A DNA stretch of 64,000 nt from an uncultured Acidobacteriota bacterium (GCA_963789815.1 CAWBMG010000013.1:729569-793568), one strand, 5' to 3'. Positions 3,505 to 30,165 are shown, counted from the first letter of the stretch. Translations and numbers: made by a program. The notes: generated by a model from the letters alone, not told the origin.

Positions 3505-3909
3505 ATGCGGACCAAGTTTGCTGTCGTAGTTGCCGGGATTGTCTTGCTCGCGGGCGTGCGTCCGCTCGTGGCGCACCATTCGTTCTCGGCCGAGTTCGAT
3601 GCCAATAAGCCGTTCAAGATGACCGGGACGGTAACCAAGGTTGAGTGGATGAACCCCCACACCTTCTTCTACATCGACGTCGTCGATGAGAAGACCAAGA
3701 AGGTGACCAATTGGGCGATGGAGATGGGGAGCCCCAACGGTCTCATGCGGCAGGGTTGGTCGCGAAACACCATGAAGATCGGCGACCAGGTCATTGTTGA
3801 AGGCAGCCTCGCAAAAGACGGGAGCCCCACTGGCAACGCCCGCGCAGTAGTGATGGCCTCTACGGGCCAGAAGCTCTTCGCCGCGTCGAGCCAGGGCGCC
3901 ACGCAGTAA
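3505..3909 (+). CDS. small secreted protein, resembles the DUF6152 group
   Basis: GGAGG lies 7 nt before the ATG at 3505. Signal peptide MRTKFAVVVAGIVLLAGVRPLVA is followed by HHSFSAEFD. Product is about 134 aa. Confidence 0.8.
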   Translation: MRTKFAVVVAGIVLLAGVRPLVAHHSFSAEFDANKPFKMTGTVTKVEWMNPHTFFYIDVVDEKTKKVTNWAMEMGSPNGLMRQGWSRNTMKIGDQVIVEGSLAKDGSPTGNARAVVMASTGQKLFAASSQGATQ

Positions 3910-3924
3910 CGCGAGGAGCGTCTC

Positions 3925-4956
3925 TTGAACAACAGGATTCAGACCGCGCTCGCTGGCGCGACGGCAGCGTTCGTGTTCTCGACGACGGTTTGGGTCACTG
4001 AGGCGCAGCAGGGCGCCGCGATACCAGGTCAGCCTCAGCCCGCGGCCGATGGACAATCGGGCCGCGGGCGGGGCCGCCAAACCGGCCCGGTGCTTCCGAC
4101 ACCACGCCTACCCGACGGCACCGTGAACTTTGGTCGAGTGCCGGGTGAGAAGGGTACCTGGAACGTCCCGTACATCACGAACATGGCGATGCGCGTCATT
4201 GGTCCTGATGGCCAGTTGCTGCCGGAGATCGTGACGTATCAGCAGGCGCAACAAGCGGCGCGCGCTGGCGGGGCTGGTGCGCGAGGCGCCGGCGGCGGTG
4301 GCGGTCGCGGTGGCTCCAAGTCTGAACCCTGGATGCCGTGGATGCCGTGGTCCGCGGCTGTGTACGACTACAACTCCGCAAACGAATCCAAGTACGACCC
4401 TGAAGGTTACTGCCTGCCACCTGGTGGTCCCAGGATGATGGCGACGCCCTATCAGATGGAGATCATTCAGCTGCCCGAGCACAAGCGCATCGTGATGATC
4501 TTCGAAGGCGCGACGCACATCTGGCGCGAGATCTACATGGACGGTCGCAAGTTCCCCGAAGGTGACGCCCTCAACCCGACGTACCTTGGCTACTCGGTCG
4601 GCCATTGGGAAGGCGACACGCTCGTCGTCGAGAACAAGGGCTTCAACGAGAACAGTTGGTTCGACTACTTCGGCCATCCGCATACCGACCAGATGCACGT
4701 GATCGAGCGGTGGACACGCCCGAACAAGCAGACGCTGCACTACGAAGCGACCGTCACCGATCCGGGCGCTTATACCCGGCCGTTCACGATCGCCTGGGAC
4801 ATTCCCTTCAATGCGACGAGCGAGTTGCCCGAGTACATCTGTCAAGAGAACAACCGGTACTTGAACCGGCTCCAAGACGATCACGGTCAGCCAATCTTTG
4901 GACCTCGTCCGCAGCCTGGTCGGCGTCCTGCGGGCGGCAGCCGGGGAACGAGATAA
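3925..4956 (+). CDS. uncharacterised secreted protein, paralogue family type A (GHWEGDTLVVE motif)
   Basis: TTG start, signal peptide, Gly/Ala/Arg-rich linker. The conserved C-terminal domain is shared with 10748..11719 (WxGDTLVVE, RxTR, YEATVxD, EYxCxExN). Confidence 0.8.
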   Translation: MNNRIQTALAGATAAFVFSTTVWVTEAQQGAAIPGQPQPAADGQSGRGRGRQTGPVLPTPRLPDGTVNFGRVPGEKGTWNVPYITNMAMRVIGPDGQLLPEIVTYQQAQQAARAGGAGARGAGGGGGRGGSKSEPWMPWMPWSAAVYDYNSANESKYDPEGYCLPPGGPRMMATPYQMEIIQLPEHKRIVMIFEGATHIWREIYMDGRKFPEGDALNPTYLGYSVGHWEGDTLVVENKGFNENSWFDYFGHPHTDQMHVIERWTRPNKQTLHYEATVTDPGAYTRPFTIAWDIPFNATSELPEYICQENNRYLNRLQDDHGQPIFGPRPQPGRRPAGGSRGTR

Positions 4957-4958
4957 GG

Positions 4959-5366
4959 ATGCGGTTCGGAGTTCTACCGTCGTTGGTACTCGCGGGCCTG
5001 TTGTGCCTGCCGGCAACGGCTGGGGCGCAGTTTGGCCACCCCATGAAGGGTCAGTGGAGTGGAGAGTGGGGTGCCAAGGACGGCCCTCAGCGCCTTCTCC
5101 TCAATCTTGAATGGGACGGGAAGGCGATCACTGGCGTGATCAACCCGGGGCCCGCCGCCGCCGTCGTGAAGTCCGTGACGTTCGACTACACAAATCCCTC
5201 GGCCTGGGTCGTCAAGATCGCCGCCGAGGGCAAGGACGCCTCAGGCAAACCGATCCCGATTGCTGTGGATGGCAAGTTGGAGAACATCGGGGCGTACTAC
5301 AAGCACTTCCACGGCACCTGGACACAGGGCGGCCAAAAGGGCGAATTCGCGGTCACGCGAAACTGA
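4959..5366 (+). CDS. small secreted protein of unknown function
   Basis: ATG at 4959, 2 nt after the upstream stop. Signal peptide MRFGVLPSLVLAGLLCLPATAGA. The rest of the supplied 253-aa ORF is out-of-frame overlap. Confidence 0.7.
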   Translation: MRFGVLPSLVLAGLLCLPATAGAQFGHPMKGQWSGEWGAKDGPQRLLLNLEWDGKAITGVINPGPAAAVVKSVTFDYTNPSAWVVKIAAEGKDASGKPIPIAVDGKLENIGAYYKHFHGTWTQGGQKGEFAVTRN

Positions 5367-5620
5367 CCAGGCGGCGTTCCGTCGCCTTTGGTGTTTCTAT
5401 CTACAGATCGCCGATTTATCGGCACTCTTGCCAAAACGGGAATCGCCGTAAAGGCGATCTTGCGGGCGCCCCGAGTGCTAACATACGTCGGCTAAGCCGT
5501 TTAGCGACGGGGCTATACGGCCGGGCGATCGAAGAGGACGTTCCCGAAGGCAACGAACGATCCGACGGTAACAGAGCGCGGGGTCAGGAATAAACACGAC
5601 ACATGATGGAGGTTCGTTAA

Positions 5621-8600
5621 ATGCGTGCATCTGTTCGGATCGCACACGTGCTGGCTTGGTTGGTCCTCGTACCGACCTTGGCGTTTGCACAGGCGTCGAT
5701 CACAGGGATCGTCAGGGATACTTCCGGCGCCGTGCTCCCCGGAGTCACCGTGGAAGCGGCAAGCCCCGAGCTCATCGAGAAAGTACGAACTGTTGTCACC
5801 GATGGCAGCGGCCAGTATCGCATCGTCGACTTGCGCCCCGGCATCTACTCGGTCACCTTCGGGCTGCCTGGCTTCAATACCGTCAAGCGCGAGGGTATCG
5901 AGCTGACAGGGAGCTTCACTGCGGCTATCAACGCCGACATGAAAATCGGGTCGATCGAGGAAACGATCACCGTCACAGGCGAGACGCCCATCGTCGACAC
6001 GCAAAGTGTCCGGCGTCAGGTCACTGTATCGAATGAGCTCATTTCGGCGATGCCGGCGGCGCGCTCGTACGCCGGTGTGATGATGCTCATTCCCGCGACG
6101 ACGACACAGGCGGGCGGTAACCTCGACATCCAGGTCACGCCCGGCATGCTCGTGTTCGGCGGCGCAGGCGGCCGGAATAACGAAGCGCGCATCCAGGTGG
6201 ATGGCTTGAACACCGGCGCGGCGTTCAACGGAGCCGGCGTCTCGAGCTACGTCCCCGACATTAGCAATGCCCAGGAAATCTCCATGACCACGTCCGGTGG
6301 CATGGGCGAGGCGGAAGTTGGTGGGCCGTCGTTCAGCATCGTCCCGAAAACGGGCGGCAACTCGCTCAAGGGCAGCGTCTACGCTTCGAACATCACCGAT
6401 GGAATGGTCGGCGACAACTACACCGACGAACTCAAAGCGCGTGGCCTCGTGACACCAGGTAGGCTATTCAAGTTGTGGGACTACAACCTTGGCATCGGTG
6501 GACCGATCAAGAAGGACACCGTGTGGTTCTTCTTCCAGTTCCGTGACGAAGGCAGCCATCGCACGATTCCGGGCATGTTTGCCAACGCGAACATGGGCGA
6601 CCCGACGAAATGGACGTATGTCGCAAACCAGAGTCTGCCGGCCGTTGCGGCGGGAAGTTGGCGGAATGCTGCGTTACGTTTGACGTTCCAACCGACACCG
6701 CGCAACAAGTTCAACGTGTTCTGGGACCAGCAGATGCCCTGTCAGGGAGCAGGATATCTTGGTACCGACGCTGGATGCCGCCAATCAGGTCCTGGCGAGA
6801 TCATCTGCGGCGCGGCGGGAGCTTCCAATCCTCCATGCAGCGCGATCGCGGCGCCCGAGAACGGAACGTATCTGAGCGGCTACGGGCAGCGGGTGCAGCA
6901 AGCGACCTGGACGTCGACAGTGACGAACCGGCTCCTCCTCGAGTCTGGTTTCGGCACCTACCTCAGTCAGTGGGGCGGCACACCGCACCCCGGCAGCAAT
7001 TTCACCGAGCTCGTGGGCGTGACCGAGCAGTGCACGGCAGGCTGCGCGGCTAACGGTAACATCGCGGGCCTCCAGTACCGCTCGGGCACCTATCGGCAGA
7101 ACCTCCAGGGCACCTTCGGTTGGCGCGGCTCGGCGTCATACGTAAGCGGCGCGCAGAGCATGAAGTTCGGTTACCAGGGAGGCTACCTGAAAGACAACCA
7201 GTACACCTACACGAACAACCAGTTCGTGTCGTACCGGTTCAACAATGGCGTTCCGAATCAGATTACCGAGAACATCAATTCCTTCCCCGCTCAGCAGCGC
7301 GTCCGGTACGACGCGTTTTACGCGCAGGATCAGTGGACGCGCGGACGGTTTACCGTTCAAGGGGCTATTCGGTACGACCACGCCTGGAGCTACTTCCCAG
7401 AAGCTACCGTTCCCGTGCAGCGTTTCGTGGCGACGGCGATCACCTATCCCGAAACGAAAGGTGTAACCGGATACCACGACATCACGCCCCGCGGCGGCGT
7501 GGCGTGGGACGTGTTCGGGACCGGAAAGACCTCGGTCAAGGTCAACGTCGGCAAATACCTGCAGGCCGCGCAGAACGGCTTGACCTACGGCCAGTTGCGA
7601 CCGACGTCACGCCTGACCACGACGACGACCCGCACGTGGACCGATGCGAACTCGAACTACGTGCCGGAGTGCGACTTGACGAGCCCGGCCGCCAACGGTG
7701 AGTGCGCGGCGATTGGGATCGCGGCCTTCGGGAGCAACGTGTTCACGAGCACGCTCGACGAGAGGCTGGTCAACGGTTGGGGCGTCCGCCCGGGTGACTG
7801 GCAGTACGGCGTGTCGATCCAGCAAGAGCTTCTGCCGCGCGTCTCGGCCGAGTTCGGCTTCAACCGTCGTTGGCTCACCAACTTCGTGGTGACCGACAAC
7901 TTGCTGCAGCCAGCGAACGAGTTCGGGACGTTCAGCATTGTCGCGCCCGTCGATCCGCGGCTACCGTCGGAAGCGTCGGGCCGGACCATCTCTGGTCTCT
8001 ACAATGCGAATCCGAGTGTTTCGACGTTGCAGAACGAGCTTCAGGCTCTGGCCGGCGATTTCGGGGACTACTCCCGAAAGTCGAAGGGATTCCTGTTCAA
8101 CATCAGCGCGCGGCCCCGCAACGGGTTGGTGTTCCAGGGAGGGATGAGTACAGGCGAAACGCGCACTGACTATTGTGACGTCAGGGCCGTCCTGCCGGAG
8201 CAGCTCACGGCGGGGCCAGTGACTGTGGAGAGCTATACGCCGACCAATCCGTGGTGCAACTTCTCGACCGGTTGGGTGACGCGGTATACGGGCCTCGGTT
8301 CGTATGTGGTCCCGAAGGTCGAAGTGCAGGTCTCCGGCACCTTCAGGAGCGACCAAGGCGGCATTCTGATGGCGAACTACAACGCGACGAGCGCACAGAT
8401 CGCGCCGTCGCTGGGTCGGCCGCTCTCGAACGCGGCGCCCAACGTCAGCGTCAACTTGATCGAGCCGGGCACGCTGTATGGCGATCGGGTGAACGAGATC
8501 GACCTTCGATTCGCAAAGATCCTGAGGTTCGGCCGAACACGGACCAACGTCGGATTCGATGTCTACAACATCCTGAACTCGGCGCCGATTCTGACTTACA

Positions 8601-8695
8601 ACCAGACCTATTCGCCAACGAGCACCACATGGCTGACGCCGAACTCGGTACTCCAGCCGCGCTTCTGGAAGTTCAGCGTGCAAGTCGATTTCTAA
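5621..8695 (+). CDS. TonB-dependent receptor with N-terminal carboxypeptidase-regulatory-like domain
   Basis: Signal peptide followed by ITGIVRDTSGAVLPGVTVEAASPELIEKVRTVVTDGSGQYRIVDLRPGIYSVTF (CarboxypepD_reg type). Plug-like region, long beta-barrel, C-terminal aromatic residue (VQVDF). Confidence 0.9.
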   Translation: MRASVRIAHVLAWLVLVPTLAFAQASITGIVRDTSGAVLPGVTVEAASPELIEKVRTVVTDGSGQYRIVDLRPGIYSVTFGLPGFNTVKREGIELTGSFTAAINADMKIGSIEETITVTGETPIVDTQSVRRQVTVSNELISAMPAARSYAGVMMLIPATTTQAGGNLDIQVTPGMLVFGGAGGRNNEARIQVDGLNTGAAFNGAGVSSYVPDISNAQEISMTTSGGMGEAEVGGPSFSIVPKTGGNSLKGSVYASNITDGMVGDNYTDELKARGLVTPGRLFKLWDYNLGIGGPIKKDTVWFFFQFRDEGSHRTIPGMFANANMGDPTKWTYVANQSLPAVAAGSWRNAALRLTFQPTPRNKFNVFWDQQMPCQGAGYLGTDAGCRQSGPGEIICGAAGASNPPCSAIAAPENGTYLSGYGQRVQQATWTSTVTNRLLLESGFGTYLSQWGGTPHPGSNFTELVGVTEQCTAGCAANGNIAGLQYRSGTYRQNLQGTFGWRGSASYVSGAQSMKFGYQGGYLKDNQYTYTNNQFVSYRFNNGVPNQITENINSFPAQQRVRYDAFYAQDQWTRGRFTVQGAIRYDHAWSYFPEATVPVQRFVATAITYPETKGVTGYHDITPRGGVAWDVFGTGKTSVKVNVGKYLQAAQNGLTYGQLRPTSRLTTTTTRTWTDANSNYVPECDLTSPAANGECAAIGIAAFGSNVFTSTLDERLVNGWGVRPGDWQYGVSIQQELLPRVSAEFGFNRRWLTNFVVTDNLLQPANEFGTFSIVAPVDPRLPSEASGRTISGLYNANPSVSTLQNELQALAGDFGDYSRKSKGFLFNISARPRNGLVFQGGMSTGETRTDYCDVRAVLPEQLTAGPVTVESYTPTNPWCNFSTGWVTRYTGLGSYVVPKVEVQVSGTFRSDQGGILMANYNATSAQIAPSLGRPLSNAAPNVSVNLIEPGTLYGDRVNEIDLRFAKILRFGRTRTNVGFDVYNILNSAPILTYNQTYSPTSTTWLTPNSVLQPRFWKFSVQVDF

Positions 8696-8746
8696 CTACC
8701 TCGTAGGGCGGGTCTTGCTGTTGAGACCCGCCTCCCTTGACTCCAG

Positions 8747-8780
8747 GAGCCGGGCTCGATTTCAGCCCGGCTCTTTTCTT
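8747..8780 (+). terminator. intrinsic terminator downstream of the TBDR gene
   Basis: GAGCCGGGCT-CGATTTC-AGCCCGGCTC followed by TTTTCTT. A second GC hairpin precedes it at about 8707-8732. Confidence 0.75.
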
Positions 8781-8793
8781 GTACGAGCTGTAG

Positions 8794-8829: not shown

Positions 8830-8830
8830 G

Positions 8831-9871
8831 TTGAATATCAGAGACATGGTCATCGATTGCCACGGGCACTACACCACGGCGCCGAAAGAGCTTCAGGCGT
8901 TTCGCGACGAGCAGATCTCCGGGCTGAAGAATCCCTCCCACGTGCCCTCCAAGCGCCCGCTCTCGATCAGCGACGATGAGCTTCGAGAGAGCGTTCAGCC
9001 TCAGCTGAAATTCCAAAGCGATCGAGGCACAGATCTCACGATCTTCTCGCCGCGTGCGTCTGCAATGGCGCATCACATCGGCGACGCGACGACCAGCGCA
9101 CACTGGTCGGAGCACTGCAACGACCTGATATTCCGCGTCTGTGGTCTCTTTCCGGAGAACTTCGTAGGCGTCTGTCAGCTTCCGCAGACACCTGGCGTGG
9201 CGCCCAGCAACGTCATCGGCGAGCTGAAGCGGTGCATCACCGAGCTCGGGTTTGTGGGCTGCAACCTGAATCCGGATCCATCGGGCGGCCACTGGAACTC
9301 GCCTCCCTTGACTGACAAGGCCTGGTATCCCGTTTACGAGAAGCTCGTCGAGCTCGACGTGCCGGCGATGGTCCACGTCAGCGCGTCGTGCAATCCGAAC
9401 TTCCACGCCACGGGCGCGCATTACATCAATGCCGACACGACGGCGTTCATGCAGTTCCTGACGGCCGACCTCTTCAAGGATTTTCCTACGCTCCGCATGA
9501 TCATTCCCCACGGCGGTGGCGCCGTTCCGTACCACTGGGGCCGGTATCGCGGCCTCGCTCAAGACATGAAGCGTCCGCCGCTCACCGATCTGATTCGCAA
9601 CAACGTGTTCTTCGATACGTGCGTCTACCATCAGGCTGGAATCGACCTGCTGATGAAGGTGGTGCCGGCCGAGAACATCCTGTTCGGGTCCGAGATGGTG
9701 GGGGCCGTGCGCGGGATCGATCCCGAAACAGGCCACTACTACGACGATACCAAACGATACGTCGACGGCGCAGCGATCGGCGACGCCGACCGCCGCAAAA
9801 TCCTCGAGGGAAACGCGAGGAAAGTGTATCCACGAATCAATAGGAAGCTTGGCGCCGTCCGCGGTGGCTGA
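8831..9871 (+). CDS. ligJ: 4-oxalomesaconate hydratase (amidohydrolase_2 family, LigJ-like)
   Basis: Near-colinear with my recollection of Sphingobium SYK-6 LigJ: IDCHGHY, IFSPRASAMAHH, NLNPDPSGGH, VPAMVHVS, IIPHGGGAVPYHWGR, FFDTCVYHQ, ILFGSEMVGAVRGIDPETGHY. The start could instead be the ATG at 8846. Confidence 0.9.
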   Translation: MNIRDMVIDCHGHYTTAPKELQAFRDEQISGLKNPSHVPSKRPLSISDDELRESVQPQLKFQSDRGTDLTIFSPRASAMAHHIGDATTSAHWSEHCNDLIFRVCGLFPENFVGVCQLPQTPGVAPSNVIGELKRCITELGFVGCNLNPDPSGGHWNSPPLTDKAWYPVYEKLVELDVPAMVHVSASCNPNFHATGAHYINADTTAFMQFLTADLFKDFPTLRMIIPHGGGAVPYHWGRYRGLAQDMKRPPLTDLIRNNVFFDTCVYHQAGIDLLMKVVPAENILFGSEMVGAVRGIDPETGHYYDDTKRYVDGAAIGDADRRKILEGNARKVYPRINRKLGAVRGG

Positions 9872-10012
9872 AGCCGTCCGCGGGGGCTGAAGCCCCCGCG
9901 CTACAGGTGCCCGTAGCGCGCACGCTTTAGCGTGCGCGAGCGGCAAAGTACCTGTAGCGCGCACGCTTTAGCGTGCGCGAGCGGCAAAGGCAACGCGAGC
10001 GGCAAAGGCAGC
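9863..10012. repeat. intergenic hairpin/tandem repeat block (GGCTGAAGCC hairpin plus two 41-nt units, each with an internal palindrome)
   Basis: CGGGGGCT-GA-AGCCCCCG hairpin. GTAGCGCGCACGCTTTAGCGTGCGCGAGCGGCAAAG occurs at about 9913 and 9954, then a GCGAGCGGCAAAGGCA tail. Confidence 0.85.
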
Positions 10013-10014
10013 AG

Positions 10015-10698
10015 ATGAAACCAACAATCGTTCGAAACATTCCGCGGGCCGACGCTGACGCCGTTCACGTGCTCGGAGAGCTGGGCGTCGCCACGGTGCA
10101 CGAGGCACAGAGCCGGACCGGCCTGATGCGGCCGTACATGCGCCCGATCTACCCATTGGCCAAGGCCGCCGGCACAGCCGTCACCGTCCTGTGTCACCCA
10201 GGCGACAACTTGATGATTCACGCTGCGATGGAACTGTGCCGCAAGGGCGACATCCTGGTCGTAACGACCACGTCCGAGTCGACCGACGGCATGTTCGGTG
10301 AACTGCTGGCCGTTTCGGCGCGCGCTCACGGCGTGACAGGACTCATCATCGATGCCGGTGTTCGAGACGTTGCGGATCTGACGACGATGGCGTTTCCAGT
10401 GTGGTCGAAGGCCGTGTCGGCGCAGGGCACCGTCAAGAGCACCGCAGGCTCCGTCAACGTTCCCGTCGTGTGCGCCGGCGCCATCGTAAAGCCGGGCGAT
10501 GTGATTGTCGGCGATATCGATGGCGTGGTCGTTGTGCCGACGCAGCTCGCTGCCGAGGTCGCACGCCTTGGAAAAGAGCGGGTGGCGAAGGAAGAGAAGG
10601 CGCGAGAGCGCCTGCGCAACGGTGAGCTCGGCCTCGATTTCTACGGGCTGCGTGCGAAACTGACCGAGTTGGGCGTCAAATACGTGGATGAGGAGTAG
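10015..10698 (+). CDS. ligK: 4-carboxy-4-hydroxy-2-oxoadipate aldolase/oxaloacetate decarboxylase (RraA-like, LigK/GalC-like)
   Basis: ATG at 10015 is the 15th codon of ORF 9973..10698; the upstream part is repeat-derived. GVATVHEAQSRTGLM, GDNLMIHAA, GLIIDAGVRD, SAQGTVK and GDIDGVVVVP match the LigK pattern as I recall it. Confidence 0.9.
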   Translation: MKPTIVRNIPRADADAVHVLGELGVATVHEAQSRTGLMRPYMRPIYPLAKAAGTAVTVLCHPGDNLMIHAAMELCRKGDILVVTTTSESTDGMFGELLAVSARAHGVTGLIIDAGVRDVADLTTMAFPVWSKAVSAQGTVKSTAGSVNVPVVCAGAIVKPGDVIVGDIDGVVVVPTQLAAEVARLGKERVAKEEKARERLRNGELGLDFYGLRAKLTELGVKYVDEE

Positions 10699-10747: not shown

Positions 10748-11719
10748 ATGAGTAGGCGCGCGCTTCTGTTAGTCATGCTGGCTTCGACACCTGCGGCTGC
10801 TCAAAACCCGGCCACGGACGTGGCGCCGAGGGCACCCGGCTACATGGTGCCGCGGACGCCGTGGGGAGACCCCGACATCGAAGGCATCTGGCCGAGCACA
10901 GAGTACGTGAGTGTGCCGCTGCAACGACCGCAGCAATTCGGATTGCGCACCGTGTTGACCGACGAGGAAGTGACTCAACGGGCGAAGCAGGAACAGGCTC
11001 AGAAGGAAGGCTTCGAACGCGACGGCGCCGGTGGTCCTACCGGGGCGCCAGGGCACTGGCTCGAATGGGGTAAGACGCAGCGGCAAGCCTCGCTCATCGT
11101 GGACCCGCCGAATGGACGCATGCCGGCACTCACTCCGGAAGGGCAGGCTCGCGCAACCGCTGCGCCCGTGGGAACCTTTGGCAACCGGCCCCTCAATGGG
11201 CCGAGCGACTTCACGATGTGGGAGCGGTGCTTTACGCGGGGCGTGCTGGGTTCGACGCTGCCGGTGCTCTGCAACAGCGGCATCGACATCACGCAAGGCC
11301 CGGGCTACGTCGCGATCCGATACGAGATGATCCACGACCATCGCGTCATTCCGCTGGGTGCGGCGAAAGTCTCTCCGGCGATCAAGCAGTACATGGGCGC
11401 TGCGCGTGGGCGCTGGGACGGGGACACGCTCGTCGTCGAGACAACCAACTTCACCGACAACAAGCTCGGAGTAGGAATCAGCGGCGGCGGGGCGCCGGGC
11501 AGCGACGCGCTCCGACTCACCGAGCGCTTCACCCGGGTGTCGCGCGACACCATTCGCTACGAAGCAACGGTCGATGACTCTCGCACGTGGACAGCCCCAT
11601 GGACGGTGGCGTTTCCGCTGAGGTTGACGCCCTCGTACGGCATGCACGAGTACGCGTGCCACGAAGGGAACTACGGCCTGTTGAACGCACTGAGCGCCGC
11701 CCGCGCATCGGAGAAGTAG
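10748..11719 (+). CDS. uncharacterised secreted protein, paralogue family type A
   Basis: Signal peptide MSRRALLLVMLASTPAAAQ. C-terminal domain RGRWDGDTLVVETTNF, LTERFTRVSRDTIRYEATVDD and HEYACHEGN is homologous to 3925..4956. Confidence 0.8.
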   Translation: MSRRALLLVMLASTPAAAQNPATDVAPRAPGYMVPRTPWGDPDIEGIWPSTEYVSVPLQRPQQFGLRTVLTDEEVTQRAKQEQAQKEGFERDGAGGPTGAPGHWLEWGKTQRQASLIVDPPNGRMPALTPEGQARATAAPVGTFGNRPLNGPSDFTMWERCFTRGVLGSTLPVLCNSGIDITQGPGYVAIRYEMIHDHRVIPLGAAKVSPAIKQYMGAARGRWDGDTLVVETTNFTDNKLGVGISGGGAPGSDALRLTERFTRVSRDTIRYEATVDDSRTWTAPWTVAFPLRLTPSYGMHEYACHEGNYGLLNALSAARASEK

Positions 11720-12293: not shown

Positions 12294-12424
12294 AGGAAAC
12301 GGAGGGGGCGGAGGGAACGGGATCACACGGAGCCACGGAGGAACGGAGATAAACAGAGAGTCTTTACCTCCGTGTCTTCGTTCCTCCGTGTGATCCCGTT
12401 CCCTCCGTCGCCTCCCTCCCCTCC
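12294..12424. repeat. long inverted repeat (GGAGGGAACGG/CACGGAG motifs) between convergent genes; the right arm lies inside the antiporter 3' end
   Basis: GGAGGGAACGGGATCACACGGAG...GGAGGAACGGAGA is mirrored by ACCTCCGTGTCTTCGTTCCTCCGTGTGATCCCGTTCCCTCC around an AT-rich centre at 12349-12366. Confidence 0.9.
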
Positions 12425-14139: not shown

Positions 14140-14157
14140 CGGAGCATCGTACTTTTT

Positions 14158-21333: not shown

Positions 21334-24300
21334 ATGAGACGCGCACTCCGCGGATTATTCAGCGGGCTTGTCGTTGTGCTCCTAGCCGCCGACGCTTCAA
21401 TGGCGCAGGTGGGTTCCACATCTCAGATTAACGGTACCGTGCGGGATTCAAGCGGAGGTGTCCTGCCGGGTGCAACTGTCGTTGGTATCCAGACCGAGAC
21501 CGGATTTCGGCGAGAGTCTGTCACCGACACAAACGGGTCGTATACCTTGCCGAACCTACCGGTCGGTCCATACCGCCTGGAAGTGTCGCTCTCAGGGTTT
21601 CGGACTCTTTCGCAAACCGGCATCGTCCTCCAGGTCAACGCCAATCCGGAGGTCAACCTCGTACTGCAGTTGGGCGAACTGACCGAGACGGTGTCCGTCG
21701 AAGCCTCCACACCGCTCGTCGAGACTCGGAGCCCCGGCATCGGGGCGGTCATCGAGAACGAGCGTATCGAGGAGTTGCCACTCAACGGACGGAACGCGGC
21801 CGATCTCATCACGATCGCGGGCGCGGCGGTTCCCCTGCCCCAGCTCAACGCGACCAGCCGTAGCATGACGGGCGGTCAGGCTTACTCGGTCGCTGGCGGA
21901 CAGGGATTCGGTGTGGCATTCCTGCTCGATGGTGCCACGCACAATAACCCTTACGACAATTTGAACCTTCCGCTCCCGTTCCCCGACGCGCTCCAGGAGT
22001 TCCGGGTCGAGACCAGCTCGACTACGGCCAGCAACGGGATGCACTCCGGCGCCTCCGTGAACGTGGTGACGAAGTCAGGCACGAACCTCTACCACGGCGA
22101 CCTCTTCGAGTTCGTTCGCAACCACAGGTTCAACGCGACCAACCGCTTCAATCAGATCAACGCGACTACGGGCGAGCGCGCCGACGACGGTCTGAGCCGG
22201 AATCAGTACGGCGGCACGATCGGCGGGCCGCTCAAGACCGACAAGATCTTTTTCTTTGGCGCCTACCAGGGCACTCGGCTACGCGAGACCCCGGCCGACT
22301 TGTTCAATTTCGTGCCGACGGCCGCGATGCTCGCCGGCGACTTCACGCAGTACGCATCCGCGGGCTGTAATACTGGCGGCGCGGTGACCTTACGCGGGCC
22401 ATTCGCGGGCCTTGGCAACCGGATCGATCCGGCCAGGTTCAGCCCGGCGGCGCTGAAGATTGCCGCGCAACTGCCCACCACCACCGACCCGTGCGGCCGC
22501 GTCACATACAGCCGCAGCCGTCCGACGGACGAGCAGCAGTACATCGGCAAGGTGGACTTTCAGCTGAGCCAGAACCAGACGATCTTTGGTCGCTACATCA
22601 TGACCAACAACACGGTGACGCCGCCCCTCCAGCTGCAGCCCGAGAACCTCCTCGTGTCGAGTCTAGGAGGGGGTGAAAGGAAGGCCCACACCTTCACCGT
22701 CGGCGATACGTTGGTCTTGAGCAACAATACGGTCAACGCGATTAGATTCGCTTTCAACTACACCGACGTTCACCGCACGCACGAGCCGATTGGGTTCTCG
22801 GCGCCGGATCTGGGCATCAAGACCTTCAGCTATATCGAGGATTACCTGCTGGTCAACGTCCAGAATGGAGGCTTCCAGCTCGGCGGCGGTACCGAGAGCG
22901 AGGCTAGGTTCAAGACGCCGTCGTATCAGGTCAACGACGACCTGACGATGATCAAGGGGAATCACCAGTACGGCCTAGGCGCGAGCGTGGCGTTCTGGTC
23001 GTCCCTGTCACAGGCCAACGTGCGTTCGCCGGGTCAGTTCACGTTCAACGGCACGATCACCGGCTTGCCGCTCGCCGACTTCCTGACCGGCAGCCTCGCC
23101 CAGTTGATCCAGGCGACGCCCAACTCGCTCGACATGCAGCAGTTGTATCTCGGGCTCTACGCGCAGGACACGTGGAAGCTGTCGCCGAGGGCGACGCTCA
23201 ACTACGGCGTCAGGTGGGAGCCCGGACTGGCGCAGCAGATCAGGAACGGCGCAATTTACAACTTCAGCACCGACCGATTCCTGAAAGGCGAGAAAACGAC
23301 ACAGTACACGAATGCTCCTCCGGGATTCCTCTATCCCGGAGATCCGGGGTTTGTGAACGACAAGGCGGGCATGGAAGATCACTGGCTTCAGTTCTCGCCG
23401 CGGGTCGGGTTTGCGTGGGATCCGAAGGGTGACGGCCGGATGTCGATTCGTAGCGGCTATTCGCTGGCCTACGACTTCGTGAACGCGCAGTTCCATCTCA
23501 ACACATCGGTCGCGCCTCCCTTCAACGCCGAGGCTCGTGTCGACAACCCGGTCGGCGGCTTCGACAACCCCTGGCTCGGGACAGGCAATGAGACGTTCTT
23601 CCCGTTCACGACGGGTAAGGATTCGCCGTTTCCGTTGACCGGACCGTACATCTCGATTCCACCCGACATCGAGCCCCCACGCCAACAAACATGGAACATC
23701 GCCGTTCAGCGTCAGATCGGCGACAACCTGGCGGTGTCGGCAACCTACCTTGGCAGCTACTCCGATCGCCTGTGGAATGTCCTGTCGTTTAACCCGGGCG
23801 TCTACATTCCCGGGAATTGCACGCTGCAAACGCCCACAGGGCCTCAGACGTTCACTCCCTGTTCGACGAATGCGACGCTCAACAACCGCCGCAAGCTGAC
23901 GATGGCCAACTTCGAAACAGGCAAGTACTTGGGTGTTGTGGACGAGCACACCGCGCTTGGCGAGCAGAGGTATAACGGCATGCTTCTCAGCTTCCAGCGG
24001 CGCAGCGCCAATGGAGTCAGCCTCAACGCCAACTACACGCTGTCGAAGTGCAAGGGCCATCCCACTCAAGGTGGAACCACACCGAACGTTGGAAGCGGCT
24101 ACGTCAACCCCGACGACATCGACTACGACTATGGCTTCTGCGACCAGGACCGCCGGCACCTCTTCAACCTGACTGCGGGCGTCCAAACGCCGGAGTTCTC
24201 GAACGCAGGTCTCCGAGCCGTTGCCTCCGACTGGCGTGTGTCCGGAATCCTGCGGTTGTTCTCCGGCCGAGCGCTCAACGTCACGGTCGCGAGCGACCCG

Positions 24301-24666
24301 GCGCGGACCGGCATTGGCAACCAGCGAGCGAACCTCTCGGGCGATCCGTACGGCGACGGGTCGTACAACAACTTCCTCAACCCGGCGTCGTTCACGACGC
24401 CCGCGCTCGGCACGCTCGGTAACTTCGAGCGCAATTCGATCAACGGTCCGGTGCAGAAGGGCGTGGACCTGGCCGTCGTGCGGTCCTTCCGGTTCAATAA
24501 CACCCACCGCATCGAGGCGCGCATCGAATCGTTCAACGCGTTCAACTGGTTCGTTCCGGACAATATCAATCCCCTCGTCGTCAATCGCGACAACGTCTTG
24601 TTCGGACGAATCACAGCTGCAGGTGACCCGCGTATCATGCAGTTCGCGCTGAAGTACAGTTTCTAA
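21334..24666 (+). CDS. TonB-dependent receptor with carboxypeptidase-regulatory-like domain
   Basis: AGGAGG lies before the ATG at 21334. Signal peptide, then INGTVRDSSGGVLPGATVVGIQTETGFRRESVTDTNGSYTLPNLPVGPYRLEVS, a plug, a long barrel and a terminal aromatic residue (LKYSF). Confidence 0.9.
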   Translation: MRRALRGLFSGLVVVLLAADASMAQVGSTSQINGTVRDSSGGVLPGATVVGIQTETGFRRESVTDTNGSYTLPNLPVGPYRLEVSLSGFRTLSQTGIVLQVNANPEVNLVLQLGELTETVSVEASTPLVETRSPGIGAVIENERIEELPLNGRNAADLITIAGAAVPLPQLNATSRSMTGGQAYSVAGGQGFGVAFLLDGATHNNPYDNLNLPLPFPDALQEFRVETSSTTASNGMHSGASVNVVTKSGTNLYHGDLFEFVRNHRFNATNRFNQINATTGERADDGLSRNQYGGTIGGPLKTDKIFFFGAYQGTRLRETPADLFNFVPTAAMLAGDFTQYASAGCNTGGAVTLRGPFAGLGNRIDPARFSPAALKIAAQLPTTTDPCGRVTYSRSRPTDEQQYIGKVDFQLSQNQTIFGRYIMTNNTVTPPLQLQPENLLVSSLGGGERKAHTFTVGDTLVLSNNTVNAIRFAFNYTDVHRTHEPIGFSAPDLGIKTFSYIEDYLLVNVQNGGFQLGGGTESEARFKTPSYQVNDDLTMIKGNHQYGLGASVAFWSSLSQANVRSPGQFTFNGTITGLPLADFLTGSLAQLIQATPNSLDMQQLYLGLYAQDTWKLSPRATLNYGVRWEPGLAQQIRNGAIYNFSTDRFLKGEKTTQYTNAPPGFLYPGDPGFVNDKAGMEDHWLQFSPRVGFAWDPKGDGRMSIRSGYSLAYDFVNAQFHLNTSVAPPFNAEARVDNPVGGFDNPWLGTGNETFFPFTTGKDSPFPLTGPYISIPPDIEPPRQQTWNIAVQRQIGDNLAVSATYLGSYSDRLWNVLSFNPGVYIPGNCTLQTPTGPQTFTPCSTNATLNNRRKLTMANFETGKYLGVVDEHTALGEQRYNGMLLSFQRRSANGVSLNANYTLSKCKGHPTQGGTTPNVGSGYVNPDDIDYDYGFCDQDRRHLFNLTAGVQTPEFSNAGLRAVASDWRVSGILRLFSGRALNVTVASDPARTGIGNQRANLSGDPYGDGSYNNFLNPASFTTPALGTLGNFERNSINGPVQKGVDLAVVRSFRFNNTHRIEARIESFNAFNWFVPDNINPLVVNRDNVLFGRITAAGDPRIMQFALKYSF

Positions 24667-25716: not shown

Positions 25717-27090
25717 CTAGTGCGCTACGGTTACCTCTGCGCTTCTCTTGCCGATGTCTCGCCCCATCACATACATCAACGCGAATATCGTTATCGTCGA
25801 GATCAGAGCTGGAACAGCGGCGGCCAGGAAGAGCTGCTGCGGCCCCCATTGTCGTCCCAGTAGCACGCCGCCGATGTACGGCCCCACGATGGCGCCGATG
25901 CGTCCGACACCGAGCGCAGCGCCAATGCCGGTGGACCGGAGATACGTGGGATAAAACGTCGCTTCGAGCGTGTTCATGCCCGGCTGGCCACCGATCACGC
26001 ACCAGCCGGCGACGAAGACGATCACGCACAGCAGGCCGAGGCTGATGCCCGGCTGTCCGATGAAGGCGATGCTGAGGGTCGCGAGCGCAAATGTCAGCGT
26101 GAGCATCGGCAGGAATCCCCGGCGGGCGATGAGCCACGCCAGACCGAACGTGCCGATCGTGCCGCCGACCTGCAAGAGCGTTCCCACGAGCACCGCAGTC
26201 TGTGTGCTGTAGCCCATGCCGGTGACGACAGTGGGAAGCCAGTTGGAGAGAGAGTAGAGGTTCAGCAGGTTCATGAAGTTGACGATCCACAGTAGGACCG
26301 TGGCCAAGCCTCGTCCTTCCCGAAACAGATGAACGAGCGGCACACCGGCTCGGCTCGCCTCATTCGCGACGTAACGAGTCTTGGCGTCAACACGCATCGA
26401 AGGGTCGAGCTTTTTGAGCCAGCGCGCCAACTGGTCGAGCCGTGTCCTCCTGACCGCAAGAAACTGGAGCGACTCGGGCAAGCCCCAGATCATCGCCAAC
26501 GCGATGACGAGCGGGATCGAGCCGCCGAAAATGAACACCGAGCGCCAGCCGAACGCGGGAATCAACCACGCGGCGACGAATCCACCGATCGCCGCGCCCG
26601 CCGTGAACCCCACCGTGATGCACATGGTCAGCGTTACGCGGCTGCGCTTGGGGCTGAACTCGCCGACCAGTGCGGTGGCATTCGGGATGATGCCGCCGAG
26701 GCCCACGCCCGCAATGAGACGGATCCAGAGAAGTTGCTGAACGTTCTCCGCGAACGTGGTCACGATCGTCATGACCGAAAAGAACAACGTGGCGCCGATG
26801 AGGACCGGTCGTCGTCCGATTTTGTCGGACAGCATGCTGAATCCGATCGATCCAAACAGCACTCCGAGATTCCCCGCGGCGAAGACCGGGCCGAGCAGCG
26901 ATCCGGCGATTCCCCACTCGCGGATGACCGCGGGGGCTGTGTAGCCCAATGCCTGGACGTCGAAGCCGTCCATGATGAGGCACAGCATGCTGAGCGTGAA
27001 CACGCGCACGTGGAGAGGGCCGATCGGGCTGTTTTCCAGAATCTCGCTGAGATTGACCGTTTCGGCCGCGCGGCCCGGCGTGTTCATCAT
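25717..27090 (-). CDS. MFS transporter, aromatic acid:H+ symporter (PcaK/AAHS-like)
   Basis: DGFDVQALGYTAPAVIREWG, LSDKIGRRPVL and 12 TM segments fit the AAHS family pattern. Confidence 0.85.
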   Translation of the reverse strand: MMNTPGRAAETVNLSEILENSPIGPLHVRVFTLSMLCLIMDGFDVQALGYTAPAVIREWGIAGSLLGPVFAAGNLGVLFGSIGFSMLSDKIGRRPVLIGATLFFSVMTIVTTFAENVQQLLWIRLIAGVGLGGIIPNATALVGEFSPKRSRVTLTMCITVGFTAGAAIGGFVAAWLIPAFGWRSVFIFGGSIPLVIALAMIWGLPESLQFLAVRRTRLDQLARWLKKLDPSMRVDAKTRYVANEASRAGVPLVHLFREGRGLATVLLWIVNFMNLLNLYSLSNWLPTVVTGMGYSTQTAVLVGTLLQVGGTIGTFGLAWLIARRGFLPMLTLTFALATLSIAFIGQPGISLGLLCVIVFVAGWCVIGGQPGMNTLEATFYPTYLRSTGIGAALGVGRIGAIVGPYIGGVLLGRQWGPQQLFLAAAVPALISTITIFALMYVMGRDIGKRSAEVTVAH

Positions 27091-27195: not shown

Positions 27196-28161
27196 ATGAA
27201 GTACGTCATGCGAGCCGCTATCACTGGGTACGCTTTCCTGGCGGCGACGCTCCTGAGCGTTCCCGCATCGGCTCAAGTCGACTTGGCAGGTGAGTGGGCT
27301 CCTGTGCGCGGCGAGGACAACACGGGCAACCCGGAGCTTGGCGATTGGGTCGGGATCCCGATGAACGATGCGTCACGTCTGCGGTCGTCCGCGTGGGACG
27401 CATCCATCTACACTTTGCCAGAGTGGCAGTGCCGCCCGCACGGCAGCGCCTACATCTCGAGGGGACCTTCGCAGCTCAAGATCTGGAAGGAAGTCGATCC
27501 GGTTTCACGAGAGACCTCGGCTTGGCATTTCGAGTGGCTCCGATCCGTCGATCGCCCCATCTACATGGACGGGCGTCCGCATCCGTCAGCGAACGCCGCG
27601 CACACATGGGCGGGGTTCTCGACCGGCGAGTGGATGGGCAACACGCTCCGCGTTCGCGTGACCCATCTGAAAGAGGAGTATCTGCGGCGCAACGGGGTGT
27701 TTCACAGCGACAAGATCGAAGTCACCCAGTATTTGATCCGCCGAGGTAACTACCTCACCTTCGTGGTCGTCGCCTACGACCCGGTCTACCTGACCGAACC
27801 GATCATTCGGAGCACCGAGTACCAACTTGCGCTCAGCCAGCAGCTTCCTCCATACCCGTGCACCGTGGTGACGGAAGTCGATCGACCGAAGGGCGTTGTG
27901 CCCCACTATCTGCCAGGCACGAACCCCGACGTCGCCTGGTTCGCGAATCGTTACAACATTCCGCTCGACGTCATCATGGCTGGCGCCGCAAATATGTATC
28001 CGGAGATTCGAACGAAGATTCCGCGATCGAGGGGCGGCTTCGGGCCCGAGTTGCCTCCGCCCGCCGCCCAGCCAGCCCAGCGTCCTTCGACCCGCCCAGT
28101 GGCACAAGGCTCAGGACGCCCTGAGGCTACCCAAGGGCGCCGCGCCGGAGCGGGGCAATGA
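27196..28161 (+). CDS. uncharacterised secreted protein, paralogue family type B
   Basis: Start at MKYVMRAAITGYAFLAATLLSVPASAQ. Core IYMDGRPHP, GEWMGNTLRVRVTHLKEEYLRRNGVFHSD and DPVYLTEP is related to 29374..30165 and more distantly to type A. Confidence 0.75.
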   Translation: MKYVMRAAITGYAFLAATLLSVPASAQVDLAGEWAPVRGEDNTGNPELGDWVGIPMNDASRLRSSAWDASIYTLPEWQCRPHGSAYISRGPSQLKIWKEVDPVSRETSAWHFEWLRSVDRPIYMDGRPHPSANAAHTWAGFSTGEWMGNTLRVRVTHLKEEYLRRNGVFHSDKIEVTQYLIRRGNYLTFVVVAYDPVYLTEPIIRSTEYQLALSQQLPPYPCTVVTEVDRPKGVVPHYLPGTNPDVAWFANRYNIPLDVIMAGAANMYPEIRTKIPRSRGGFGPELPPPAAQPAQRPSTRPVAQGSGRPEATQGRRAGAGQ

Positions 28162-29315
28162 GGCTCGATGACATCTGCGGGCGCGTTGCGATCCTGGTGG
28201 TCACCGTCGCGACGTTGGTGACGGTACACGCGCAGCAGCCCACCATCCAGCCGTCGAAGCTCGTGCGAGCGCCGATGATTCAATCGCCGCCCGCCGGCGA
28301 AATCGAGACGCTCCCGATTCGCGGCAACCTATACGTGCTGTTCGGTGCGGGTGGAAACATTACGGTGTCGGTTGGCACCGACGGTGTGTTGCTGGTGGAT
28401 GCCGGATTGGCCAACATGACCGACAAGGTGGTGGCGGCCGTCCAGCGGTTGCAGCGAGAGTGGGCCGCAGGCAACGAGCCGAAGCCACTCGGGTGGGGTG
28501 CGGAAACGCGTTCGTCAGTCGTCGATCGTCACATCTCCGCCCCGCCCAAACCCATTCGTTACATCATCAACACGCACATGCATCCCGATCACGTGGGCGG
28601 GAATGAAAAGCTCCGAAACGCCGGCCGCACCTTCACCGGCGGCAACGTGGCTGGCGACATTCGCGACTCGACCGAAGGTGCAGCGATACTGGCGCACGAG
28701 AACGTCCTCATCAGAATGACGCAGAACGGCGAAAGCGTCCCGGCCCCGTCCTCCGACTCGCTGCCGACGGACACGTACTACGTCGACTACTACAAGCTGA
28801 GCCACTACTTCAACGGCGAAGGCGTGCAGTTGATTCACATGCCGAACGCACACACCGATGGCGATTCGATTGTCCATTTCCGCGGAACGGACGTCATCGC
28901 GCTCGGTGACCTGATGTCCACCGAGTCCTATCCAATCGTCGATGTGGCCAGGGGCGGCAACATCAACGGGATCATCGATGCGATGAACAAAGTGCTCGAC
29001 ATGTCGATGGTGGAGTTCCGTCTCGAGGGCGGGACGATGATCGTGCCTGGCCACGGCCGCCTCGTCGACTCGGCAGACGTGGCCTACTACCGCGACATGC
29101 TCACGATCATCCGCGATCGCGTGCAGGACATGGTCAAGAAGGGCATGTCGCTCGAGCAGGTGAAAGCCGCCAAGCCGAGCGGCGACTACGACTCCGAATA
29201 CGGCGCCACCTCCGGTATGTGGACGACCGACATGTTCCTTGAAGCGGTCTTCAAGAGTCTCGACGGCGGCAAGACGCCCCCACCAAAGGCGGGTGGGGCG
29301 GGTAAGGCAAGGTAG
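28158..29315 (+). CDS. secreted MBL-fold metallo-hydrolase
   Basis: ATGA overlap with the upstream stop. N-terminal signal/TM segment. INTHMHPDHVGGN (HxHxDH motif) with later H/D ligands. Confidence 0.85.
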   Translation: MRLDDICGRVAILVVTVATLVTVHAQQPTIQPSKLVRAPMIQSPPAGEIETLPIRGNLYVLFGAGGNITVSVGTDGVLLVDAGLANMTDKVVAAVQRLQREWAAGNEPKPLGWGAETRSSVVDRHISAPPKPIRYIINTHMHPDHVGGNEKLRNAGRTFTGGNVAGDIRDSTEGAAILAHENVLIRMTQNGESVPAPSSDSLPTDTYYVDYYKLSHYFNGEGVQLIHMPNAHTDGDSIVHFRGTDVIALGDLMSTESYPIVDVARGGNINGIIDAMNKVLDMSMVEFRLEGGTMIVPGHGRLVDSADVAYYRDMLTIIRDRVQDMVKKGMSLEQVKAAKPSGDYDSEYGATSGMWTTDMFLEAVFKSLDGGKTPPPKAGGAGKAR

Positions 29316-29373
29316 GGCAGGTGGGTCGCGTAGGGCGGGTCCTGGTTTCTCGGCCCGCCGTCTTCGGACAAGC

Positions 29374-30165
29374 ATGAAACTCTTGTTGCCAATCGTATTG
29401 TCGCTGTCGATCGCCGCGCCTGCTGCGGCGCAGCAGCCTCCGGCCCAAGGTGGGCGCGGCGGCCAAGCGCCTCAAGTTCCCCCAACCGCGCGCGCAAACG
29501 CGCCGCTCGATCTCACTGGCCAATGGGTGTCTCTCGTTACCGACGATTGGCGCTGGCGCATGGTGACGCCTCCGAAAGGTGACGTGCTCTACCTCCCGGT
29601 GAACGAGGCCGGCCGCCAAATGGCGCAGCAATGGGACGCGGCTCGCGACGCAGCCTCGGGTGAGGCCTGCCGCGCCTATGGCGCGGGCGGCATCATGCAC
29701 CTGCCAGGCCGACTCCGCATCTCCTGGGACAACGACAACACGTTGAAGCTCGAAACCGACACGGGCCAGCAGACGCGTGTCTTCGCCTTCGGCAACTCAC
29801 AACCACCAGCCGGTGAGCCCACGTGGCAAGGTTTCTCGGCTGCGGCGTGGGAGGTGCCCGGTGGTGGTGGGCGTGGAGGTCGAGGCCGCGGTGCAGTAGG
29901 TCCCGCGACGCGGCCAGGCTCGTCCCTCCGCGTCACAACGAAGGGGATGCGGTTGGGCTACTACCGCCGGAACGGCGTCCCGTACGGCCCAAACGCCACG
30001 ATGACCGAGTGGTTTACGACAATCACGGAGCCGGATGGCAATACTTATCTCCTGGTGACCAAGATCCTCGAAGACGCGCAGTACATGAATGCGCCGTACG
30101 TTCGAACCGTGCAGTTCAAGAAGGAAGTCAGCACGACGGGGTGGAATCCGACACCATGCAGCTAG
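29374..30165 (+). CDS. uncharacterised secreted protein, paralogue family type B
   Basis: Start at MKLLLPIVLSLSIAAPAAAQQ. LRVTTKGMRLGYYRRNGVPYGPNATMTEWF and YLLVTKILEDAQYMNAPY parallel 27196..28161. Confidence 0.7.
   Translation: MKLLLPIVLSLSIAAPAAAQQPPAQGGRGGQAPQVPPTARANAPLDLTGQWVSLVTDDWRWRMVTPPKGDVLYLPVNEAGRQMAQQWDAARDAASGEACRAYGAGGIMHLPGRLRISWDNDNTLKLETDTGQQTRVFAFGNSQPPAGEPTWQGFSAAAWEVPGGGGRGGRGRGAVGPATRPGSSLRVTTKGMRLGYYRRNGVPYGPNATMTEWFTTITEPDGNTYLLVTKILEDAQYMNAPYVRTVQFKKEVSTTGWNPTPCS

Follow-up and report, generated by a model that had tools for sequence, protein, structure and literature searches.

Putatively exported paralogous proteins in three-gene cassettes beside aromatic catabolism genes of an uncultured Acidobacteriota bacterium

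Four paralogous, putatively exported proteins

A 64,000-nt stretch of DNA from an uncultured Acidobacteriota bacterium (GCA_963789815.1, CAWBMG010000013.1:729569-793568; hereafter the window, with positions counted from its first letter) carries four + strand genes for paralogous, putatively exported proteins of two subtypes. Type A comprises A1 (3925-4956) and A2 (10748-11719, starting 50 bp past the aldolase gene LigK), which belong to the "X" and "Y" subclasses of the family, respectively. Type B comprises the divergent members B1 (27196-28161) and B2 (29374-30165), the first and the third genes of a cassette whose middle gene encodes a hydrolase of the metallo-beta-lactamase (MBL) fold (28158-29315, +). 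The MBL protein has a Lactamase_B match of 56 bits, an HMHPDH motif, and a signal peptide, and its gene overlaps B1 by ATGA at 28158-28161. The ATGA coupling had been claimed in a preliminary description of the window, made from the sequence alone.

According to BLASTP, A1 and A2 share 37% identity across the C-terminal 123 residues (77 bits, E 2e-20), B1 and B2 match across 231 residues (E 2e-17), and A1 matches B1 (E 7e-14). As for A2 and B2 alone, pairwise BLASTP gives no significant match. Profile-profile comparison of the B-type and A-type alignments by hhalign, however, reports 97.8% probability (E 7e-13, 105 columns), and together with the pairwise matches it therefore places the four proteins in one superfamily with two subtypes. 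The four secreted open reading frames (ORFs) of the preliminary description, as well as the distant resemblance of type B to type A, are thus confirmed. The motifs it quoted are present in the BLASTP alignments, where A1 and A2 align at GHWEGDTLVVEN/GRWDGDTLVVET, ERWTRP/ERFTRV, YEATVTD/YEATVDD, and EYICQENN/EYACHEGN, and B1 and B2 at LRVRV..EYLRRNGV/LRVTT..GYYRRNGV and YDPVYL/EDAQYM. An origin of the four genes by chance or as ORF artefacts is ruled out by these E-values and by thousands of conserved homologs.

All four proteins begin with the basic-hydrophobic-AxA/Q pattern of a Sec signal peptide (the stroke marks the cleavage site; read by eye), in line with the signal peptides assigned earlier, and we infer from it that they are exported. 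None of the four has a lipobox or a Cys at position +1, and the sites are of the signal-peptidase-I type. Two cysteines are conserved in every one of the four, one within a C-x-P/x-G motif and the other close to the C-terminus. The pair fits an exported, disulfide-bonded protein, and it probably forms a clamp disulfide.

Neither Pfam-A nor NCBIfam has a match at E ≤ 0.1 to any of the four proteins, and no PDB sequence matches them or the family profiles, which agrees with the earlier statement that the family has no assigned function. The homologs of each number in the thousands and invariably bear the label "hypothetical protein"; the named sources are Vicinamibacterales, Acidobacteria, and Gemmatimonadetes metagenome-assembled genomes (MAGs). 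When 1.84 billion cluster representatives were searched with the superfamily profile, 24,504 clusters (50% identity) matched at E ≤ 1e-3, and 12,397 still did so at E ≤ 1e-10. Several family copies occur per genome. No curated family, structure, or paper was found that covers the proteins or the cassettes described below.

Family members also occur in fusion proteins, namely a tandem two-domain (FAM-FAM) protein (P0363), a fusion of a B-type member with an MBL (P0426), and a fusion with a VOC/glyoxalase domain (P0490). In some Y-type, A2-like members of 479-595 aa (P0200, P0203, and P0361) the N-terminus is extended by a further domain of about 270 residues, to which the precomputed annotation gives the label PF26061.

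Predicted fold and conserved residues

The AlphaFold2 models of A1 (predicted local distance difference test [pLDDT] 71.7) and A2 (pLDDT 83.9, predicted template modeling score [pTM] 0.83) both combine an N-terminal wrap, which includes a long helix, with a disordered Gly-rich loop and a confident eight-stranded antiparallel barrel, to which the A2 model adds a helix at the C-terminus. According to DSSP, the eight barrel strands occupy residues 177-296 in A1 and 179-292 in A2. The pLDDT of the barrel blocks is mostly 70-98, with one A1 block dipping to the high 60s. Foldseek against the PDB returns calycins only (streptavidin, CRBP II, FABPs, and CpeS), the best of them with probabilities of 0.98-0.99, but with E-values from 5e-3 to 1e-2 and target TM-scores of about 0.45-0.5. 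The calycin-like fold suggested in the preliminary description is thus weakly borne out by the barrel and by the calycin-only list, with no PDB match at E ≤ 1e-3. The predicted fold is calycin-like, the resemblance is weak, and membership in the calycin superfamily is unproven.

Among 67 aligned A-type sequences, the invariant polar residues (A2 numbering) are Q183, H196, R199, E259, R263, Y271, D277, E301, E306, and N308. Type B has lost most of this set and keeps R199, R263, and D277 in most sequences, along with core positions, among them G-x-W and the C-terminal Cys. Both types conserve G46-x-W48, and R263 occurs in every A-type and B1-type sequence but is absent from B2.

Gene context of the family

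The gene context of A-type members was surveyed in 80 loci, one per species genome, fetched with A-type patterns and annotated with the window proteins and with hidden Markov models built from recurrent neighbor clusters. The loci come from Acidobacteriota (Bryobacterales, Terriglobia, Vicinamibacterales, Holophagales, and Ca. Multivorans), Gemmatimonadota, Gammaproteobacteria (including Pseudomonadales, Steroidobacteraceae, and Ca. Rariloculaceae), and one member of Burkholderiaceae. A second family member lies ≤1.5 kb from the matched gene in 59 of the 80 loci, and a gene for DUF6152, a small exported protein, in 47. Cytochrome-c-fused propellers of the pyrroloquinoline quinone type (cytC-PQQ) follow with 15 loci at ≤1.5 kb and 24 at ≤5 kb, whereas outer-membrane proteins (OMPs) are found in only 7 at ≤1.5 kb. 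The membrane protein DUF6644 lies ≤5 kb away in 11 loci. As for LigJ, LigK, LigB, LigC, gentisate dioxygenase (GDO), and FAA hydrolase, homologs of each occur in 0-2 loci at ≤5 kb and none at ≤1 kb.

Densities per 100 kb give the same picture. DUF6152 falls from 18 at <1 kb to 2-3 at 5-10 kb, cytC-PQQ from 8.2 at <1 kb to 0 at 7.5-10 kb, and DUF6644 from 5-6 to about 1 with distance. For OMPs together with TonB-dependent receptors (TBDRs) the density is 5.1 next to the gene and 2.0-2.5 at 5-10 kb, an enrichment of about 2-fold on small counts. As to co-occurrence with TBDR and ring-cleavage genes, a check suggested in the preliminary description, the former show this enrichment, while ring-cleavage genes are rare across the 80 genomes. 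The constant companions of the family are a second paralog and DUF6152, not TBDR or aromatic genes.

The commonest gene order is (cytC-PQQ) X > Y > DUF6152 > (DUF6644 x2, cytochrome c'-like), and in Holophagales, Vicinamibacteraceae, and Ca. Multivorans the order cytC-PQQ > X > Y > DUF6152 < TBDR > is found. Among 22 strict trios, each taken from a different genome, X-X and Y-Y comparisons between genomes score 289 and 207 bits, respectively, whereas X-Y comparisons score 73-77 bits, even inside one genome. Because X-Y scores are far lower, X and Y are anciently separated subfamilies that have been kept together. In the window, A1 is X-like (median of 113 bits to X vs 71 to Y) and A2 is Y-like (167 to Y vs 77 to X). 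A complete X/Y/DUF6152 trio is therefore present in the window, interrupted by the genes for sm135, OMP1, LigJ, and LigK. A cultured carrier, Novosphingobium humi G5 (RefSeq), has on a plasmid two DUF6644 genes divergent from a gene for a hypothetical protein, followed by a family member (a 302-aa "hypothetical protein"; hhalign 99.7%, E 2.5e-25) and then by DUF6152; the accessions recorded for this cassette are WP_290010862.1 and WP_273620494.1.

Several side observations concern these modules. A 455-aa protein that recurs near them (L066:4435-5802, − strand, and five further loci) has the cytochrome-c motif CQACH in its N-terminal part together with HH...HxH...M motifs, which resemble those of PHM/DBH-type copper monooxygenases. 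In locus L047 (Proteobacteria bacterium UBA1148) the module is locally expanded to an extreme degree, and some six family members share 20 kb with five DUF6152-like genes. The X-Y pairs on two MAG contigs titled Klebsiella (L044 and L080) are of a kind characteristic of soil Acidobacteriota or Gammaproteobacteria, and these contigs are probably mis-binned or mislabelled.

The DUF6152 gene of the window (3505-3909, +) matches PF19649 with 107.6 bits against a gathering threshold of 27. In 41 homologs, H24, H25, P51, and H52 are invariant, N50 is kept in ≥90%, and D32 and E73 are nearly invariant. The residue before H24 is Ala in ≥90% of these sequences, and the window sequence reads LVA/HH. Since H24-H25 directly follow this A-x-A site, which is itself read from the sequence, mature DUF6152 would begin with His-His. 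An N-terminal His is a hallmark of histidine-brace copper proteins. Like CopC/PcoC and lytic polysaccharide monooxygenases (LPMOs), DUF6152 has an invariant first mature His and a further invariant His downstream, and H25 and H52 are candidates for second metal ligands. In contrast to these proteins, it has a His-His plus N-P-H pattern of its own and no detectable homology to CopC or LPMOs. The comparison is offered as a lead and not as a result. No PDB relatives of DUF6152 were found, and a literature search on DUF6152, DUF6644, and PF19649 found no paper.

B1 orthologs of 59-89% identity on 80 contigs from soil metagenomes were used to trace the B1-MBL-B2 cassette. The MBL gene follows the B1 ortholog in 62 of 63 cases, and B2 is next after MBL in all 39. 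GDO lies ≤5 kb downstream in 24 of 29, and a divergent gene of the major facilitator superfamily (MFS) stands directly upstream in 50 of 62. The outer-membrane barrel gene OMP2 is directly upstream of B1 in 10 of 62 and within 3 kb in 18 of 31; loci L003-5, L089, and L160-171 have an OMP directly before B1. A second copy, B1'-MBL'-B2', is often found 3' of GDO, and the cassette therefore duplicates as a unit. In L086-88 it stands between a beta-propeller gene and an asparaginase gene, with no OMP or gentisate genes.

The best NCBIfam match of the cassette MBL is TIGR04559 ("quinoprotein relay system zinc metallohydrolase 2"), of which it is not a member (79.8 bits vs a cut-off of 280). With these SoxH-like proteins it shares export, the MBL fold, an unknown substrate, and nearby quinoprotein-type genes. 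The TIGR04559 system, however, lacks flanking B1 and B2 genes.

Surrounding genes of the window

The type-A cluster is preceded by a GntR/FCD regulator (2625-3371, +; Pfam GntR and FCD), which has the same position in L002, L003, L160, and L166, and a promoter-like site at 3415-3443 lies before the DUF6152 gene. A1 is followed by sm135 (4962-5366, +), an exported protein of 134-135 aa with an invariant Q-x-G-x-P..G-x-W-x-G N-terminus and no Pfam match. It is a recurrent companion of the module, with homologs within 1.5 kb of the matched gene in 7 of 80 loci and within 5 kb in 11. The 135-aa secreted protein of the preliminary description thus exists, but the mechanical 160-aa ORF at 5111-5593 (+) is a wrong-frame artefact of Arg-rich nonsense. 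The possibility that sm135 is a mini-version of the family barrel was ruled out (hhalign probability 5%).

Next come OMP1, a TBDR-like outer-membrane barrel (5621-8695, +; CarboxypepD_reg and OMP_b-brl_4, PF25183, 70.3 bits), a LigJ-like Amidohydro_2 enzyme (8831-9871, +), and LigK, 4-carboxy-4-hydroxy-2-oxoadipate aldolase (9973-10698, +; TIGR02798, 318 vs a cut-off of 304.5). Of the ligJ/ligK pair named earlier, LigK stands above its NCBIfam cut-off, whereas the LigJ-like protein has only the Amidohydro_2 match and no NCBIfam equivalog. Both lack a signal peptide and are cytoplasmic. With cytoplasmic LigJ and LigK beside exported proteins, these operons therefore mix compartments, as utilization loci do. 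A2 is followed by a DUF4399 protein with a lipobox-like TIAC (11799-12293, +; PF14347, 59.3 bits). On the − strand, a LigB-type extradiol dioxygenase (15261-16442) and a LigC-like GFO/OxRdtase_C dehydrogenase (16556-17488) are syntenic in L001, L002, and L173.

The B cluster has a second outer-membrane barrel, OMP2 (21172-24666, +; CarboxypepD_reg and OMP_b-brl_4, PF25183, 583.5 bits). A Plug domain (PF07715) is matched in OMP2 at the expected position (193-293), but below the cut-off (E 0.019, 15.9 bits vs 23.9), and OMP1 has no Plug match. The proteins called TBDRs in the preliminary description are accordingly large outer-membrane barrels with, at best, a sub-threshold Plug. The MFS gene (25717-27090, −), divergent from B1 and described earlier as PcaK-like, matches the aromatic-acid/H+ symporter family TIGR00895 with 354 bits, which is under the cut-off of 418.55. 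Past B2 lie an FAA-family hydrolase (30200-31111, +) and gentisate 1,2-dioxygenase (31177-32247, +; TIGR02272, 523.3 vs 442.1). The matches in Pfam and NCBIfam also confirm GntR, DUF6152, DUF4399, LigK, and the gentisate genes as the neighbors listed previously. No solute-binding protein domain is found in the four proteins by Pfam or NCBIfam, and the cluster contains no ABC or TRAP permease.

Relatives of A1 with 77-88% identity keep the order DUF6152-A1-small protein(s)-LigJ-LigK-(A2)-DUF4399 ... LigB-LigC; the close relative L001 has no OMP in its A cluster. Orthologs of A2 (60-67% identity) stand in DUF6152-LigJ-LigK-A2 with LigB, LigC, and FAA nearby and without A1. In the Vicinamibacterales-like clade to which the window belongs, the cassettes have a stable place inside OMP, LigJ/K, and gentisate operons.

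Discussion

Our reading of these data, which we put forward tentatively and would not yet call probable, takes the barrels for heteropairs that bind ligands in the periplasm on behalf of a partner metalloprotein and that were recruited here for aromatic substrates. All four genes would code for soluble proteins that reach the periplasm via Sec and come from a single, uncurated superfamily of very large size; each protein would be built from an N-terminal wrap with the invariant G-x-W, an eight-stranded calycin-like beta-barrel, and a Cys clamp. The proteins would not act alone. The family is arranged in three-gene cassettes, each with two anciently diverged paralogs and one metal-type partner: X (A1), Y (A2), and DUF6152 with a His-His mature N-terminus in one, and B1, MBL, and B2 in the other. 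The barrels, as small-molecule binding subunits, would trap an organic acid or a hydrophobic compound in the periplasm before passing it to DUF6152 or MBL for processing. In the Vicinamibacterales-like clade both cassettes would have been recruited into operons for uptake and catabolism, which combine a TBDR-like OMP, an aromatic-acid MFS, the lower pathway of protocatechuate/gallate 4,5-cleavage, and the gentisate pathway, and the substrates there are probably aromatic acids or conjugates. The homology, the signal-peptide sequences, the class of fold, the cassette architecture, and the synteny are observed; ligand binding, complex formation, the identity of the substrate, and the chemistry all enter this picture as predictions.

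A number of observations weigh against it. No ligand, cavity, or complex was observed, and the Foldseek matches do not reach E ≤ 1e-3. The A-type polar set could pass for a catalytic or metal site as readily as for a binding site, and most of it is missing from type B. Being orthologs, the 80 B-type loci represent few independent events. Finally, cytochrome-c/PQQ-type propellers, DUF6644, and cytochrome c'-like proteins recur outside the clade, and these neighbors point to redox chemistry rather than to simple substrate hand-over.

The preliminary description had instead proposed a utilization locus. In such a model the family would be a dedicated TBDR accessory for aromatic-acid uptake with a SusD-like role, as in a polysaccharide utilization locus (PUL). 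The gene orders of the clade speak for it: OMP2 > (MFS <) B1 > MBL > B2 > FAA > GDO is kept in dozens of soil contigs, an OMP stands immediately 5' of B1 in the loci listed above, the window itself has DUF6152-A1-sm135-OMP1, and a TBDR ends the module order of Holophagales, Vicinamibacteraceae, and Ca. Multivorans. There is also a precedent for the uptake of an aromatic derived from lignin via a TBDR (PMC6874591). For the family at large, however, OMPs adjoin (≤1.5 kb) in no more than 7 of the 80 genomes, the OMP and TBDR density is about 2-fold over flanks on small counts, aromatic genes are almost absent, and neither the A cluster of L001 nor the B cassette of L086-88 has an OMP. The signal-peptidase-I sites, the lack of a lipobox, and the beta-barrel fold are also unlike SusD. 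We therefore regard a dedicated TBDR accessory as unlikely, and the utilization-locus picture is partly supported: with MFS at 50 of 62 and GDO at 24 of 29 B1 orthologs and with LigJ-LigK at A2 orthologs, it describes the clade fairly, but with OMPs at 7 of 80 loci and ring-cleavage homologs at no more than 2 of 80 each it does not define the family. The invariants proper are the X/Y paralog pairing, the partnership with DUF6152, and the B1-MBL-B2 cassette, which the preliminary description had overlooked.

The ten invariant residues would also suit type-A barrels that are themselves periplasmic enzymes (e.g., a hydrolase, lyase, or isomerase) using His, Glu, Tyr, and Arg, with type B as degenerate, non-catalytic partners of MBL. 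Their loss from most of type B fits this, as does the VOC/glyoxalase fusion P0490, and calycin-fold enzymes exist (allene oxide cyclase and lipocalin-type PGD synthase). Pfam, NCBIfam, and Foldseek, however, show no similarity to any enzyme family, and the strict pairing with a second paralog and DUF6152 is left unexplained, which makes an enzymatic role doubtful. Quite improbable, in our estimate, is a periplasmic redox or metal module, in which DUF6152 would bind a metal such as copper via the N-terminal His-His and the His of N-P-H, the barrel pair would be a scaffold or chaperone, and electrons would come from cytochrome-c/PQQ-type propellers or DUF6644. Such a module agrees with the invariant H24, H25, and H52 and the preceding Ala, with the steep distance profiles of cytC-PQQ and DUF6644, with the cytochrome c'-like genes and the cytochrome-c fusion with HH..HxH..M motifs that recur nearby, and with the Novosphingobium locus, which joins two DUF6644 genes, a family member, and DUF6152. 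Metal binding by DUF6152 is, however, a prediction without CopC or LPMO homology, no DUF6644 or cytC-PQQ gene adjoins the cassettes in the window, redox partners are found at only 15-30% of loci, and the B cassette has a hydrolase instead.

A further reading would make X/Y/DUF6152, and by analogy B1/MBL/B2, subunits of previously unrecognized periplasmic metalloenzyme complexes, with an N-terminal-His metal center in DUF6152 fed by cytochrome-c/PQQ-type propellers or DUF6644 and a barrel heteropair that holds the substrate. We consider it a long shot worth stating: if true, the cassettes would be categorically new, a new extracytoplasmic system for oxidation or processing that is widespread in soil Acidobacteriota, Gemmatimonadota, and Proteobacteria. 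A role as a chaperone of PQQ or another cofactor, suggested by the PQQ-type neighbors, was considered and rejected, as the PqqU paper offers no link, and a role tied to a single cofactor is disfavored because the paralog diversity of the family is huge.

Compared with known systems, the family shares with calycins (FABP/CRBP, lipocalins, and avidins) a C-terminal domain of ~120 residues modeled as an eight-stranded antiparallel barrel, and its conserved G-x-W and Arg residues recall the calycin signature. It differs from them in having no sequence similarity and no structural match at the above threshold, in the N-terminal wrap of ~170 residues and the conserved Cys pair, in its predicted export in Gram-negative bacteria, and in forming obligate-looking heteropairs with a third gene. 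The loci in the window are TBDR-linked catabolic loci with an unknown accessory system. They were compared with SusC/SusD PULs and with DdvT/DdvK uptake of the lignin-derived 5,5'-dehydrodivanillate (DDVA) in Sphingobium SYK-6 (PMC6874591), and share with these an outer-membrane barrel transporter, an inner-membrane MFS, cytoplasmic catabolic enzymes, a local regulator, and a co-directional cluster. In contrast, the window has no SusD-like lipoprotein, its accessories are predicted soluble barrels with signal-peptidase-I sites, its OMPs have at best a sub-threshold Plug, and the family is mostly found away from TBDRs. SusD-like accessories have an all-alpha TPR-like fold and adjoin a TBDR as a rule, whereas the family models are beta-barrels and adjacency to an OMP is seen only in the B1 ortholog clade.

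A family of at least 24,000 clusters at 50% identity with no Pfam or NCBIfam model is a sizeable blind spot. In soils, Acidobacteriota and Gemmatimonadota rank with the most abundant bacteria, and most of their periplasmic proteins have no function assigned. The fixed three-gene cassettes offer a concrete testable unit in place of isolated hypothetical proteins, and the predicted His-His N-terminus of DUF6152 a specific biochemical hypothesis. In the clade, where they share protocatechuate/gallate and gentisate operons with an OMP, the cassettes bear on the uptake and pre-processing of lignin-derived aromatics by oligotrophic soil bacteria, and the cultured N. humi G5 makes genetic tests feasible.

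Additional features of the window

GC-rich hairpins with T-rich tails lie directly past the stop codons of sm135 (5369-5387) and OMP1 (8745-8775). They may divide the cluster into DUF6152-A1-sm135, OMP1, and LigJ-LigK-A2-DUF4399, although the hairpin scan overall is not above the shuffled expectation. Between DUF4399 and the block of alpha/beta hydrolase, LigB, and LigC lies a Kef-type Na+/H+ exchanger with a TrkA_N domain (12364-14205, −), overlapped by a 701-aa + strand ORF that has no Pfam match and is probably spurious. The LigC-like dehydrogenase adjoins a DUF6282 protein (17625-18797, −; 219 bits), followed by genes for an aldo-keto reductase (AKR), SnoaL_4, and an FAA hydrolase. Many soil contigs keep this block in synteny with OMP2, and it may supply a missing hydrolase step of the 4,5-cleavage pathway.

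Past GDO, a 525-aa protein (32293-33870, +) has an MBL domain only at residues 320-491, with an N-terminus of 300 aa without assignment, and its gene is convergent with that of a PQQ_2/BamB-like propeller (33920-35329, −). Relatives carry the second B1'-MBL'-B2' cassette in the place of this pair.

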